Shown here in pieces: positions 1-33,113 of a stretch of DNA of 33,113 nt. Made by a program: the position numbers and the translations under genes. The stretch is taken from IMG/VR virus record IMGVR_UViG_2529292715_000006; one strand, 5' to 3'. This stretch comes from a virus. Taxonomy: Duplodnaviria > Heunggongvirae > Uroviricota > Caudoviricetes. Every line of letters begins with the position of its first letter. Position 1 is the first letter of the stretch. Below the pieces are notes generated by a model that did no database searches, was not told where the DNA came from, and saw nothing but the letters and a program-made list of their open reading frames with translations.

Positions 1-678
1 GTTGCCATTCAAGGTTGATGATGTTCGAGCGTCTTAAGCCTGTTGCCAGTGCAAATTCAACAACAGACTTTAATGGCTCCGGACATTCATCAATCAGCCT
101 TTGTGCTTCATGGGGCTCCAGCCAGCGGATCCGTTTATTCTTTGGTTGAGGCACTTTAATAATTGGTGCCTTATCCAGCATTTTCCATTCACGCTCTGCG
201 GCTCTTAGTAGGGCCTTTATAAATGAAAGATGCGTAGCCTTCGTTACAACGGACGCTGGTTTTGGCGTGTATTCTGGAACAGGTTTCCCTTTTTTTCTGC
301 ATGCTTCTGCCCTGAGTTTCCAGTTTTCCTCATGACGCCGGTTCGTCATTTTCTGCATTGCTGAATAAATTTTTGATTCAGTAATGTCTCTTAGTTGCAT
401 TCCTGCGAAATGTTGAAGCCAGAATCCGATCCGGCTTTTGTCATCGTCCAGTGATTTTTTATGTGCTTTCTCTTCAAGCCACCTGACACACGCTTCCTCG
501 AACGTTATATCAGGTATTTCACCAAGTTTGCTGACCCGCCATGCTTCAGCCTTTAGCTTGTCATGGAGTTCTGTCGCCTGCCTTTTGTCCTTTGTTCCAA
601 GAGACTGTTTAAATCTTTTACCGTTCGGCAATGTGAAACTGGCGTACCATATTTCACCTCTGCGGAAGAGTGACATTT
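1..678 (-). CDS. int: Phage tyrosine integrase, N-terminal ~226 codons (C-terminus beyond left edge)
   Basis: Reverse-strand translation from ATG at 676-678 gives [46 protein letters not shown]..., a lambdoid integrase N-terminus, open to position 1; absent from the ORF track because there is no in-window stop. Confidence 0.9.
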
Positions 679-903
679 TCTTTCCTCTGTTATGCCATCA
701 CCCGCGCTCACCTGGACAGTATGCAGCGGAGACTGAAGAGCCGCAATGCAGGCTTGTCGTGTTGTGAGGTAAGGAGATTTATTCTTAGTGGGATCTTTGC
801 GTGTTGCCTGAAGACGCCCTGTGCGTATCCAGTTAATGGCAGTCGGTCTGGATATCTTGAGAAAATGACAGGCCTCATCGAGTGTGAGGCTGTATGGCTC
901 CAT
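553..903 (-). CDS. xis: Excisionase-like small HTH protein (AlpA/Xis type)
   Basis: [37 protein letters not shown]... from ATG 901-903; directly upstream of int and overlapping its start; true C-terminal extent uncertain. Confidence 0.6.
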
Positions 904-1208
904 TATTTCACCTCTTGCTGTGACATTGTTGAAAAATGGATACCAGCTCGTTGCTGCCAGACGATCCAACCGAGAGTCATATCCCATGCCATGTATTCGT
1001 TATTGCCGTTTTTTGCTCTCCGACGATCTACTAAGTCACCGAAACGCTTTTCCATGAATAATTCATAAGCTTCGCGTTCATCTGGTTCTACTTCCAGAGA
1101 TAGGAGTGCGATTTCATAAGCACGGCGCTCAATATCGTCTCGCACGTCAAGGCTGCTGATACGCTCTTTAATTTCTTTAATCAGTTCTTTGTCGGTAAAA
1201 GTGGTCAT
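903..1208 (-). CDS. Hypothetical early protein (101 aa)
   Basis: Complete ORF; its stop overlaps the xis ATG (TAATG), suggesting translational coupling in the early-left operon. Confidence 0.5.
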   Translation of the reverse strand: MTTFTDKELIKEIKERISSLDVRDDIERRAYEIALLSLEVEPDEREAYELFMEKRFGDLVDRRRAKNGNNEYMAWDMTLGWIVWQQRAGIHFSTMSQQEVK

Positions 1209-1570
1209 TATGCTCCAGCCTCCGGTGCTTTTGGCATTACTGCCCAGTGAGTGATATTGACGTTTTCAAGGTCCCCGACCTGAAATGTCCACTGCCATTC
1301 TCCGGTTTCTTTTTGTCCCCAGGTGTACCAGAGAGAACGCCAACCAATTAGCCAGCCTTCTCCGTTAGCATCGAATAACAAAACACTTTCATTTGCTGGT
1401 GGCAGTTCAGTTGACACTGGTATTACTTTGTTTTCCTGTGCTGCACATTTAGCTTCAAGCGCATCGAATTTACGCACCAGGTATTCAGCATCTGTTTCAT
1501 TTACTTTCAGATCTCGCGGTACACATCTCCCACGAAGAAACCCTTCCATTTCGAAAACATTCATGCGCAT
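1208..1570 (-). CDS. Hypothetical early protein (120 aa, Trp-rich)
   Basis: Complete ORF with a 1-nt stop/start overlap with the downstream gene. Confidence 0.5.
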   Translation of the reverse strand: MRMNVFEMEGFLRGRCVPRDLKVNETDAEYLVRKFDALEAKCAAQENKVIPVSTELPPANESVLLFDANGEGWLIGWRSLWYTWGQKETGEWQWTFQVGDLENVNITHWAVMPKAPEAGA

Positions 1571-1767
1571 TTGCGTAACTCCGATAACTCGTTAAAGCGT
1601 TCCATAAACATCCCGTAGGCATGGCCCGGTGCCAGTGGAATCACGTTGAACATCTCTGTTGCCGGGATACCTTCCAGTACAGGCCAGAAAGAGCCATCAT
1701 CAAGCCCGAGATCGCGGCGTTCGGTTGCCAGCATGATGAGATCGGCATATTTCACGGGCGTACTCAT

Positions 1768-30632: not shown

Positions 30633-31179
30633 TGAGGACGATTGAAGCCATGCAGCGACAACTCCTCGGCCTGATTGGGCGGGCCGTGGTGAAAAGCATC
30701 AGTGCCGCCACGAAATGTCTGACCGTGGATGTGTCCCTGATTGCCGGTGAACCCAAAGCCGGGTTGAACATCTTGAACCCTACGGTTTTACCGCAAGGGC
30801 AAACAGCGGTGCGGAAGCGGTGGTGTTGTTTCCGGATGGCGACCGTTCTCATGCGGTGGTTGTTACGGTGTCAGACCGGCGCTACCGCCTGAAAGGGCTG
30901 CAGACGGGTGAGGTGGCTGTCTATGACGATCAGGGGCAGTCCGTGACGCTGACCCGGGAGGGGATCGTGGTGGACGGTGCAGGTAAAACGATCACGTTTC
31001 GCAATGCACCTGAAGCACGTTTTGAAATGGACCTGGAAGTAACAGGACAGGTGAAAGACCTGTGCGACTCCGGCGGCACCACCATGTCAGCAATGCGGCT
31101 TGCCTATAACGGTCATCGTCACAGAGAGAACGGTCAGGGCAGTAACACCGATAAACCTGATAAAGCTATGGAGGCATGA
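30632..31179 (+). pseudogene. Baseplate spike/assembly protein (gpV / Mu gp45-like) with a frame break near 30750-30770
   Basis: N-terminus in one frame (30632-30892) and the remainder in the next frame (open 30751-31179: ...VEHLEPYGFTARANSGAEAVVLFPDGDRSHAVVVTVSDRRYRLKGLQTGEVAVYDDQGQSVTL...); neither ORF alone is full length. Confidence 0.6.
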
Positions 31180-31604
31180 TGGAACTGTGGCTGACGGTGA
31201 ACGGTAAACGCACCTGCGCCAGCGCACCGCTGGATCCGCTGACCCGCGCCGTGGTGATTTCCCTGTTTACCTGGCGGCGGGCGGAGCCTGATGACAACGC
31301 CGACGTCCCGATGGGATGGTGGGGGGATACCTGGCCTGCGGTACAGAATGACCGTTACGCCTCCAGACTGTGGCTGCTTCAGCGCAGCAAACTGACCAAT
31401 CAGCTGGTGCAGACGGTAAGGGGGTATATCCGCGAATGCCTGCAATGGATGACTGATGACGGCGTGGTGTCCCGTATTGATCTGGATATCCGCCGCACCG
31501 GGATTAATGAACTGGGTAACAGTATCACTCTCTGGCGTCGTGACGGACCGGTAATGATTTCTTTTGATGATCTGTGGAGTGCGATAACGCATGGCGGACA
31601 GTGA
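31176..31604 (+). CDS. Baseplate protein (Mu gp46-like)
   Basis: 142 aa, ATGA-coupled. Confidence 0.75.
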   Translation: MMELWLTVNGKRTCASAPLDPLTRAVVISLFTWRRAEPDDNADVPMGWWGDTWPAVQNDRYASRLWLLQRSKLTNQLVQTVRGYIRECLQWMTDDGVVSRIDLDIRRTGINELGNSITLWRRDGPVMISFDDLWSAITHGGQ

Positions 31605-32649
31605 ATTTCAGCGCCCGACGCTGGCAGAAAATATCAGTATGCTCCGTAACGATTTATTCGCCAGGCTGGACGTCAGCGACACGCTACGGCGCATGGATGA
31701 AGACGTGCGGGCAAAGGTGTATGCGGCGGCGCTGCATACGGTTTACGGGTACATCGATTATCTGGCAATGAACATGCTGCCTGACCTGTGCGATGAGTTC
31801 TGGCTGGCGCGACATGCTGCGATGAAACGGTGTCCGCGCAAGGGGGCCACGGCTGCCAGCGGGTATATGCGCTGGGAAGGTGTCAGCGATGGCCTGAAGG
31901 TGACCGCCGGAAGTGTTATTCAGCGCGATGACCTGGTTCAGTACACGGCAACTGCCGATGCAGCCAGCTCCGGTGGTGTCCTGCGCCTGCCGATCGCCTG
32001 TTCAACTGCAGGCGCGGTCGGTAACGCTGACGACGGTACGGCATTAATCCTGGTCACGCCGGTGAATGGTCTGCCGTCTTCCGGTGTTGCAGATACCCTG
32101 ACAGGTGGATTTGATACTGAAGAGCTGGAAACGTGGCGCGCCCGCGTCATTGAGCGGTATTACTGGACGCCGCAGGGCGGGGCTGACGGGGACTATGTCG
32201 TCTGGGCTAAAGAAGTGCCCGGCATTACCCGCGCATGGGCATACCGTCACTGGATGGGAACGGGGACTGTCGGTGTGATGATTGCCAGTAGTGACCTGAT
32301 TAATCCCATTCCGGAAGAATCAACGGAAACGGCGGCAAGACAACATATCGGGCCGCTGGCCCCGGTGGCAGGCTCTGATTTGTATGTGTTCAGGCCGGTG
32401 GCGCATACGGTGGATTTTCATATCCGTGTGACGCCGGATACACCGGAAATACGGGCTGCCATCACCGCGGAGTTGCGTTCGTTCCTGCTGCGTGATGGTT
32501 ATCCGCAGGGAGAACTGAAGGTATCGCGTATCAGTGAGGCGATTTCCGGTGCGAACGGGGAATACAGCCATCAGTTGCTTGCCCCGGCTGACAATATCTC
32601 CATTGCAAAAAATGAACTGGCGGTTCTGGGGACGATTTCATGGACGTGA
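31591..32649 (+). CDS. Baseplate J-like wedge protein (Mu gp47-like)
   Basis: 352 aa; position in the baseplate operon. Confidence 0.8.
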
Positions 32650-33113
32650 CAAACGATGATTACATCCGTCTGTTGTCGGCACTGTTGCCCCCCGGTCCGG
32701 CGTGGTCAGCCAGAGATCCGGCGATTGCCGGTGCGGCACCGTCATTAACCCGCGTTCATCAGCGTGCGGATGTCCTGATGCGGGAGCTGGATCCGCGCAC
32801 CACCACTGAACTGATAAACCGCTGGGAGCGTCTGTGCGGTCTGCCGGATGAATGTATTCCCGCAGGGACACAGACCCTTCGCCAGCGTCAGCAACGACTG
32901 GATGCGAAGGTTAACCTGGCGGGCGGCATCAATGAGGATTTTTACCTTGCACAGCTTGCTGCCCTGGGCAGACCAGACGCCACCATCACGCGATACGACA
33001 AAAGCACGTTCACCTGCTCATCTGCCTGTACTGACGCGGTGAATGCGCCGGAATGGCGGTATTACTGGCAGGTCAACATGCCAGTCGCCACCAACAGCAC
33101 CTGGATGACATGT
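32640..33113 (+). CDS. Tail protein (Mu gp48-like), N-terminal 158 codons (runs off right edge)
   Basis: ATG 32640 ([53 protein letters not shown]...) open to the window end; absent from the ORF track because there is no in-window stop. Confidence 0.7.

Follow-up and report, generated by a model that had tools for sequence, protein, structure and literature searches.

The 33,113-bp stretch of DNA analyzed here (the window) matches exactly the entire contig AFGW01000012.1 of assembly GCA_000213695.2, which is listed as Shigella flexneri VA-6 in the strain table of PMC6397287. Our analyses indicate, with a probability of roughly 0.85, that the window holds most of a temperate phage of the serotype-converting SfV/SfII family, which is carried by this strain as a defective prophage. 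Upon comparison with intact relatives, three lesions stood out: an insertion of the insertion sequence (IS) IS1 in the early gene yfdR, an amber codon in the large terminase gene terL, and a frameshift in the baseplate spike gene gpV. Apart from these three, every gene was full length in comparison with both the prophage of Escherichia coli WS0115A and the functional phage SfV. A defective prophage is characterized by the loss of function of one or more genes that lytic growth requires, and the amber mutation (W515*) is such a loss. The kind of element and the phenomenon, a defective Shigella prophage hit by IS1, are ordinary and already known. The present comparison does sort the suspected lesions: yfdR::IS1 and terL W515* are real and inherited, a homopolymer frameshift is unverified, and a fourth candidate was a false alarm. 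The first two could be of use as markers in the phylogeny of this S. flexneri lineage.

Family membership and modular structure

The assignment to the SfV/SfII family is carried by sequence identity, gene order and domain content. In a megablast search of positions 8114-33113 against phage records, the best matches were SfV (96.4% identity over 74% of the query), SfII (97.8% over 67%) and Escherichia phage vB_EcoM-689R6 (96.9% over 88%). The gene order of the family is kept, as judged by tblastn with all SfV proteins and by blastn: int, xis and the early left operon are followed by cI-cro, the replication genes, nin-like genes and Q, the lysis genes, HNH-terS-terL, and the head, contractile tail and baseplate genes. 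The combination of an HK97-type head with a Mu-type contractile tail and baseplate was found by Pfam analysis of identical or near-identical proteins, which contain the families Phage_portal, Peptidase_S78, Phage_capsid, Phage_sheath_1, Tail_tube, DNA_circ_N, Phage_Mu_Gp45, GP46, Baseplate_J and Phage_Mu_Gp48. A scan of the whole window against Rfam returned no family that reached its gathering threshold.

Phage SfV (NC_003444) is collinear with the window and 96-99% identical at the nucleotide (nt) level outside a few replaced modules. From int to the cII-like gene (1-6894) the identity is 98-99.4%, gap-free apart from IS1, and the cI and cro products are 99.6% and 100% identical, which implies the same immunity type. 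Also shared are dam, rusA, the DUF968 gene, the lysis genes, HNH, terS, terL and the whole Mu-like tail module (95-99% identity at the amino acid (aa) level), with the tail and baseplate genes being 97-99% identical. In contrast to SfV, the replication genes are replaced at 6895-8094, as are Q and the adjoining cargo at 11828-13849, where a gene for a KAP-family NTPase takes the place of SfV orf47 and orf48 (methyltransferase). The window furthermore has an extra gene of 184 codons between Rz1 and HNH (15129-15903), while the portal, protease and capsid genes (18525-22347) are replaced by the allele of SfII, SfI and SfIV, with 25-28% aa identity to SfV. None of the three lesions is present in SfV, and the gtr genes lie outside the window. 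Two further traits of SfV-like phages, integration at thrW beside proA and a gtrA-gtrB-gtr[type] cluster for O-antigen modification placed between the tail fibre genes and att, concern DNA beyond the contig ends.

The late region from terS to the baseplate, head module included, is 97.4-97.8% identical at the nt level to SfII, SfI and SfIV (KC736978, JX509734 and KC814930), which do not carry the lesions either. The megablast match to SfII is limited to 16258-33113, the early region of the window being of SfV type instead. The head proteins of SfI, SfII and SfIV share over 90% identity and are distinct from those of SfV, but are nonetheless HK97-family members (PMC3851460). Judged by alignment, the left arm and immunity region are thus of SfV type, the head module is the HK97-like allele of SfII, SfI and SfIV and not that of SfV, and the contractile tail is the Mu-like one of SfV and SfII. 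In the SfV record, the tail genes are noted as resembling Mu GpL, N, P and gp45-48. The initial annotation of this sequence had described a mosaic of modules of different ancestry. Its assignments (lambdoid lysis, HK97 head, Mu tail, cI/Cro switch) were correct, but this is the standard layout of the SfV family and no peculiarity. The architecture with an HK97 head, a Mu tail and lambdoid genes is a published feature of SfV-like phages, in line with the notes in the SfV record; SfV was reportedly described by Allison and colleagues in 2002 (J Bacteriol, volume 184, page 1974). Prophages of the SfV/SfII family, their mosaic composition and the common occurrence of IS1-riddled cryptic prophages in S. 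flexneri are all already known.

About 105 complete E. coli genomes hold a prophage that covers at least 80% of the first 25 kb of the window. The best relative among them, the prophage of E. coli WS0115A (NZ_CP035882), is 98.5% identical over 96% of these 25 kb and is integrated at the tRNA-Thr gene thrW beside proA. All of its genes, including yfdR, terL and gpV, are intact, and it has the same cargo, namely the KAP NTPase and the 184-aa protein. It differs in an extra gene of 176 codons after the tape measure gene, which is absent from both the window and SfV. The cryptic prophages e14 and CPS-53 of E. coli K-12 share the ymf and yfd genes and thus provide the names yfdR, yfdQ, yfdP, ymfK, ymfT, ymfL, ymfR and ymfQ. 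Within S. flexneri, the chromosome of the serotype 3b strain SFL1520 (CP032513; PMC6424224) is 99.995% identical to positions 1777-20840, with one base difference in 19 kb.

The contig breaks within the integrase gene on the left and within the Mu gp48-type baseplate gene on the right, and both prophage ends are missing from the window due to these assembly breaks. The shortness of the integrase reading frame has the same cause and is no demonstrated truncation. The positions of the breaks suggest either further SfV-family copies in the VA-6 genome or IS insertions at these sites. No IS sequence is found at contig ends 1 and 33113, and the contigs of close relatives run collinearly beyond position 33113. 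In these relatives, the 2.4 kb of DNA just past the window end match SfII (tail fibre, assembly protein and acyltransferase genes) with 98.8% identity over their full length, after which the contigs stop before gtr.

Lesions in yfdR, terL and gpV

The IS1 copy of the window (768 bp) has terminal inverted repeats of 23 nt and is bordered on both sides by an exact 9-bp repeat in direct orientation, AACTGGGGG (1768-1776 and 2545-2553). It interrupts yfdR, the counterpart of SfV orf30, which encodes a YfbR-like 5'-deoxynucleotidase with an HD domain, at codons 108-110; the HD domain is found by Pfam at residues 41-104 of intact YfdR. At the yfdR::IS1 junction, the sequence TACTCATAACTGGGGG is joined directly to GGTAATGACTCC. 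The length of 768 bp, the inverted repeats of about 23 bp, the 9-bp duplication and the insA/insB genes with a slippery run of the A6C type are those of the IS1 family. In comparison with the IS1 copies in the E. coli relative L006, whose products bear the domains Zn_ribbon_InsA/InsA and DDE_Tnp_IS1, the element is 91% identical and thus a diverged IS1 variant. The same IS1, with the same right junction, is present in SFL1520, whereas the junction was found in 0 of 5,426 complete E. coli genomes. The contigs of two NCBI draft assemblies of close relatives, L013 and L014, start 5-7 nt past the IS1 end, which would be the outcome if this IS1 broke short-read assemblies. The initial annotation had counted the insertion among lesions in essential or early functions. 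This description fits only in part: yfdR is an accessory early gene and not an essential one. IS1 transposed into this gene, leaving its usual 9-bp duplication, and would probably be polar on the downstream genes of the leftward operon, which include the DUF551 gene, yfdT, xis and int.

In SFL1520, the outer flank of this IS1 (CP032513, locus L011, positions 1-1735) is not yfdR-xis-int, but Sf6/P22-like DNA with genes for a DUF2824 protein, a P22 gp7-like protein and an IS3-type transposase. Since the left flank of IS1 is foreign in this strain, an IS1-mediated inversion or deletion has split off the left arm of the prophage there.

The terL gene has a TAG codon at 18414-18416 where both WS0115A and SfV have TGG for Trp515, so that the last 63 residues are lost. 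In intact TerL, Pfam places TerL_ATPase at residues 86-256 and TerL_nuclease at residues 268-558, and the amber codon thus falls inside the nuclease domain. The protein aligns over residues 80-556 with the HK97 large terminase structure 6Z6D (E = 9e-25), and this alignment locates a conserved C-terminal '(K/R)IDGxVA' motif within the lost segment. By analogy with other RNase-H-like terminase nucleases, this motif presumably supplies an active-site Asp. The G>A transition would therefore, by removing the end of the nuclease domain, be expected to abolish concatemer cutting and packaging. SFL1520 shares the TAG codon, as do L013, L014 and the sequence re-assembled by Logan from SRR059931, the last being 100% identical across 14524-19602 (5,079 bp). 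A literature search for the run SRR059931 gave no match. By contrast, none of the 1,193 complete E. coli genomes that hold the surrounding 61-nt stretch matches it exactly, the best among the matches listed differing by one base, and the species-representative genomes of GTDB gave no match to a 36-mer containing the amber codon. Based on these data, the terL amber is real, lineage-specific and inherited.

In gpV (Mu gp45), the G run at 30761-30763 reads GGG, versus GGGG in the relatives. This -1 deletion destroys the frame after codon 44 of 182, and the predicted product has 44 native and 42 out-of-frame residues, so that the Phage_Mu_Gp45 domain (residues 17-84 of intact gpV) is broken. If the base call is right, this contraction would prevent the completion of tails. 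L014, which is 99.95% identical to 18186-33113 and carries the amber, nonetheless has GGGG, and both L014 and L015 have an intact gene for the 182-aa gpV. L013 also has GGGG, but with a private 11-bp insertion 58 bp downstream of the run. No exact copy of the frameshifted 86-aa product is on record in public assemblies, although an identical -1G was found in the Logan contig SRR10682419 (L020), which is only 96.7% identical over 3.56 kb; because the same deletion is seen in such a diverged contig, the G run may be prone to slippage. Taken together, the gpV lesion is either recent or an artefact.

Other relatives are affected in the same gene. Besides the -1G in L020 and the 11-bp insertion in L013, two remnants, L018 and L021, show gpV homology that begins no more than some 20 nt from the G run and is preceded upstream by unrelated DNA. 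These recurrent hits may reflect chance, slippage-proneness, or a hotspot of recombination or deletion.

Since the source is a draft assembly from 2011 and the gpV lesion is a one-base homopolymer contraction that is absent from the otherwise nearly identical L014 and L015, one could suppose that all the lesions are sequencing or assembly errors and that the prophage is functional. We regard this as very improbable, because the IS1 and the amber both occur in SFL1520, which was assembled independently from Nanopore and Illumina reads, because the amber recurs in three further assemblies, and because IS1 has a clean 9-bp target duplication and coincides with contig starts where a short-read break is predicted. 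An artefact could therefore account for no more than one of the three lesions, and packaging should already be blocked by the amber in terL on its own. The three lesions of the initial annotation were thus all found in the sequence, and two of them were validated by independent assemblies, while the third is possibly a homopolymer error.

Decay, retention and mobility of the prophage

Judged from their shared occurrence, the IS1 and the amber predate the split between VA-6 and SFL1520 and were inherited vertically. The late-gene substitutions that distinguish VA-6 from L014, which are recent, were nonsynonymous in 5 of 7 cases, whereas the older divergence between VA-6 and the E. coli relative involved nonsynonymous changes in 79 of 291 codons (27%; Fisher p = 0.02). 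This nonsynonymous excess, the private lesions in individual strains and the rearrangement in SFL1520 fit ongoing decay, as had been proposed at the outset when the element was called a decaying cryptic prophage. In SFL1520, 15 phage regions, most of them cryptic, have been counted along with 355 IS elements; IS1 is the commonest type and accounts for 43% of the latter (PMC6424224). The decay would thus most simply be a neutral consequence of the general IS expansion and pseudogenization in Shigella genomes.

Several observations weigh against the view that the window represents most of an SfV/SfII-family phage in defective form. The contig stops inside int and gp48, and any att sites, tail fibres and gtr genes of VA-6 would lie outside the window. 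The defectiveness was read from the sequence; the terL amber could be partly suppressed in a suppressor host, and a related phage, either co-resident or superinfecting, could make good the two late-gene defects in trans. The polarity of IS1 on xis and int is probable by analogy with classical IS1 behaviour. The gpV deletion is private to VA-6 among its close relatives and lies in a homopolymer of a 2011 draft, so it may be an error. Lastly, the shift towards nonsynonymous changes was detected at 7 sites only.

A further proposal of the initial annotation was retention of the prophage by the host on account of its accessory genes. Such a domestication, in which selection would preserve the immunity genes, the KAP gene and perhaps genes for O-antigen modification located past the contig end while lytic functions are lost, is in our opinion doubtful. 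In its favour are the intactness of cI, cro and the KAP gene, which are identical or nearly so to the copies in relatives, the full-length match of the KAP protein to the PDC-S20 profile of PADLOC, the persistence of the element in 21 or more assemblies, all with the same 456-aa tail protein, and the fact that two of the three lesions strike genes for particle formation. Moreover, the right end runs in close relatives into SfII-type DNA, where the O-antigen modification genes are located in the family (as known from the SfV record). However, cI, cro and the KAP gene together make up 6.8% of the element, and three random lesions would miss them with a probability of 0.81. Likewise, two hits in the late genes are the chance expectation, given that these genes occupy 52% of the element, and the single base difference in 19 kb between VA-6 and SFL1520 leaves no power for detecting whether the cargo is under purifying selection. 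PDC-S20 itself is a candidate defence system, and Shigella genomes decay in general (PMC6424224). The inference that the prophage is kept for its cargo thus has no statistical support from this locus alone.

A different possibility is that the element is defective alone yet mobile with a helper, an SfV/SfII-type phage supplying TerL and the spike in trans and thereby spreading the immunity and KAP genes. All late genes except terL and gpV are full length, the region corresponding to cos is conserved at 16313/16314, and terL and gpV share 97-100% identity with their SfV and SfII counterparts, whose products should thus be able to stand in for them; the breaks in int and gp48 may in addition reflect related prophage copies in the genome. 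We nevertheless consider such mobilization improbable, since IS1 in the leftward operon may impair excision, since SfV-type immunity would repress a homoimmune helper, and since the left arm with int and xis is no longer adjacent in SFL1520. The parts that the element has kept (cos, terS, HNH, the full head module and nearly all tail genes) would also suit a more specific scheme, in which it is a transmissible immunity and defence island that depends on a heteroimmune helper of the SfII/SfI type, the recurrent gpV hits (the -1G in VA-6 and in the diverged L020, and the 11-bp insertion in L013) being the outcome of selection against autonomous tail production and not of chance. This scheme appears even less probable. 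Neutral decay of a defective prophage remains the reading that we prefer.

Immunity, cargo and remaining genes

Features of the window are compiled in the Table. The genes for the cI-type S24 repressor, Cro and the cII-like protein are all intact, and cI and cro are SfV alleles. Superinfection immunity of the SfV type and silencing of the other genes should therefore persist, to which the KAP NTPase may add a defence. This protein matches the PADLOC PDC-S20 profile PDLC04956 with residues 3-442 on profile positions 4-449 of 450 (E = 1.5e-176), with weaker matches to PifA and QatA, and its Walker A motif (GAWGTGKT, residues 39-46) is intact. Judged by these matches it is a candidate anti-phage defence gene, PDC-S20 itself being a PADLOC candidate. 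The earlier view that immunity is intact and accompanied by candidate defence cargo is thus borne out. The KAP gene lies on the opposite strand in a cargo slot between Q and the holin gene with a GC content of 35%, versus 52% for the window.

Table. Features of the 33,113-bp window, with coordinates, strands and supporting comparisons.
Feature	Coordinates	Strand	Comparison or remark
Integrase, N-terminal 225 codons only	2-676	-	98.2% aa to SfV Int residues 1-225; 99.5% to WS0115A integrase
Excisionase-like helix-turn-helix protein (SfV xis)	553-987	-	98.6% aa to SfV Xis; NCBIfam excisionase E = 1.7e-5, under cut-off; downstream of IS1 in the leftward operon
yfdR/SfV orf30 C-terminal fragment, residues 108-178	1561-1776	-	tblastn 100% to WS0115A YfdR; 98.6% to SfV orf30
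IS1, 768 bp, insA/insB in the same direction as yfdR	1777-2544	-	Insertion versus WS0115A and SfV; terminal inverted repeats and direct repeat
yfdR N-terminal fragment, residues 1-110	2545-2874	-	tblastn 100% to WS0115A YfdR
cI-type repressor, LexA/UmuD-like S24 peptidase, intact	5324-5998	-	99.6% aa to SfV cI; 100% to WS0115A YmfK; Pfam Peptidase_S24 E = 1.5e-26
Cro-type repressor, intact	6089-6289	+	100% aa to SfV Cro
ymfM-like 112-aa open reading frame (6881-7219), overlapped out of frame by DUF4222 59-aa open reading frame (7060-7239)	6881-7239	+	
KAP-family P-loop NTPase, 443 aa, intact	12249-13580	-	Pfam KAP_NTPase E = 7e-70
Lysis cassette	13877-15222	+	S and R 95-96% aa to SfV; all proteins 100% to WS0115A
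Lambda-S-family holin, intact	13877-14203	+	Pfam Phage_holin_3_1 E = 5.7e-25
SfV R-type endolysin, intact	14207-14683	+	WS0115A counterpart annotated 'glycoside hydrolase family 24'
Rz/Rz1 spanins, intact	14667-15059, 14944-15222	+	
Large terminase terL with amber codon	16872-18605	+	Product 514 of 577 residues
HK97-type head module, intact: portal 18799-20040; S78 prohead protease to 20668; major capsid protein 20683-21888	18799-21888	+	98.5-99% aa to WS0115A; 97.8% nt to SfII; portal 28% and major capsid protein 25% aa to SfV
Mu-type contractile tail, intact: tail terminator, DUF2635, sheath 24072-25565, tube, tail assembly chaperone, tape measure 26332-28167	23349-30632	+	98-99% aa to SfV orf9-orf16, stop-free
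Mu N-like protein	28228-29556	+	
Mu P-like protein	29553-30632	+	
Mu gp45/P2 gpV-type baseplate spike gene, -1 frameshift	30632-31179	+	
Baseplate genes gp46, gp47/J, gp48	31176-33113	+	97-98.6% aa to SfV orf18-20; gp48 severed by contig end at codon 158 of 194; past 33113, L014 carries on collinearly into tail fibre genes of SfII type

The slot between Q and the holin gene (12221-13876) is a variable cargo hotspot among the relatives L003-L012, in which it holds a gene for a 1050-aa metallophosphatase/NACHT protein, genes for an N6_N4 methyltransferase and a 339-aa protein, a porin gene, an IS, or other unknown genes. A second slot of low GC content (33%) is located between Rz1 and the HNH endonuclease gene (15223-15904) and encodes the 184-aa protein, which has one predicted transmembrane segment at about residues 22-48 and matches phrog_6169 (unknown function). 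A match of this protein to SLATT (E = 0.004) was far under the cut-off and was not taken as meaningful. In relatives, this slot contains genes for Bor, a DUF6236 protein or other small genes. The termini of the linear SfV genome record map to position 16313/16314 between the HNH endonuclease gene and terS, and the sequence is conserved in the window; this is probably the cos site.

A possible fourth lesion had been suspected at 6881-7239, where two open reading frames (ORFs) overlap. We rejected this candidate, because the segment is indel-free in comparison with WS0115A and represents a conserved overlapping arrangement of ymfM and DUF4222. The 112-aa ORF matches phrog_1170 over 112 of 112 residues, and the 59-aa ORF matches phrog_1343 over 59 of 59 residues as well as Pfam DUF4222 (E = 2.7e-17). 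Of the 5,426 complete E. coli genomes, 2,005 contain this 359-bp stretch (coverage of at least 80%, mostly 95-100% identity), among them K-12, where it lies between ymfL and an O-like gene and corresponds to the e14 ymfM locus. The e14 ymfM ORF causes SOS-inducible filamentation (bioRxiv 10.1101/2020.11.19.390815).

Four other candidate lesions were also rejected. The region 4271-4579, annotated by PGAP as a frameshifted hypothetical protein, has the same sequence without gaps in the functional SfV. The gene of 176 codons that is missing after the tape measure gene is also missing from SfV and is therefore an insertion in WS0115A. A 3-bp difference at 24078 is in frame and common to L013 and L014. 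Finally, the frame change between 25921-26190 and 26157-26339 corresponds to the conserved -1 programmed frameshift of tail assembly chaperones: the chaperone gene (Pfam Phage_TAC_7) has the slippery heptamer T TTT TTC at 26172-26178, near its end, and the -1 frame runs without a stop as far as 26339, shortly before the tape measure gene.

At 4692-4937, an ORF of 81 aa on the plus strand, which matches phrog_3311 over its full length, overlaps in antisense orientation with SfV orf33 on the minus strand (4855-5151, 98 aa, phrog_3195). Each of the two is annotated as a gene in some assemblies.

A comparison of six distinct variants from the fetched loci, which is a small sample, was made for the overlap of ymfM and DUF4222. 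Both ORFs are open in all six. Upstream of position 7060, 6 of the 7 variable sites are third positions of the ymfM frame, while within the overlap all 5 variable sites are third positions of the DUF4222 frame and second positions of ymfM. Purifying selection thus seems to change frame at about position 7060, and the C-terminal half of YmfM, a published inhibitor of cell division, may not be the selected frame. Together with the candidate defence gene in the slot between Q and the holin gene, this apparent switch of the selected reading frame is possibly worth following up.

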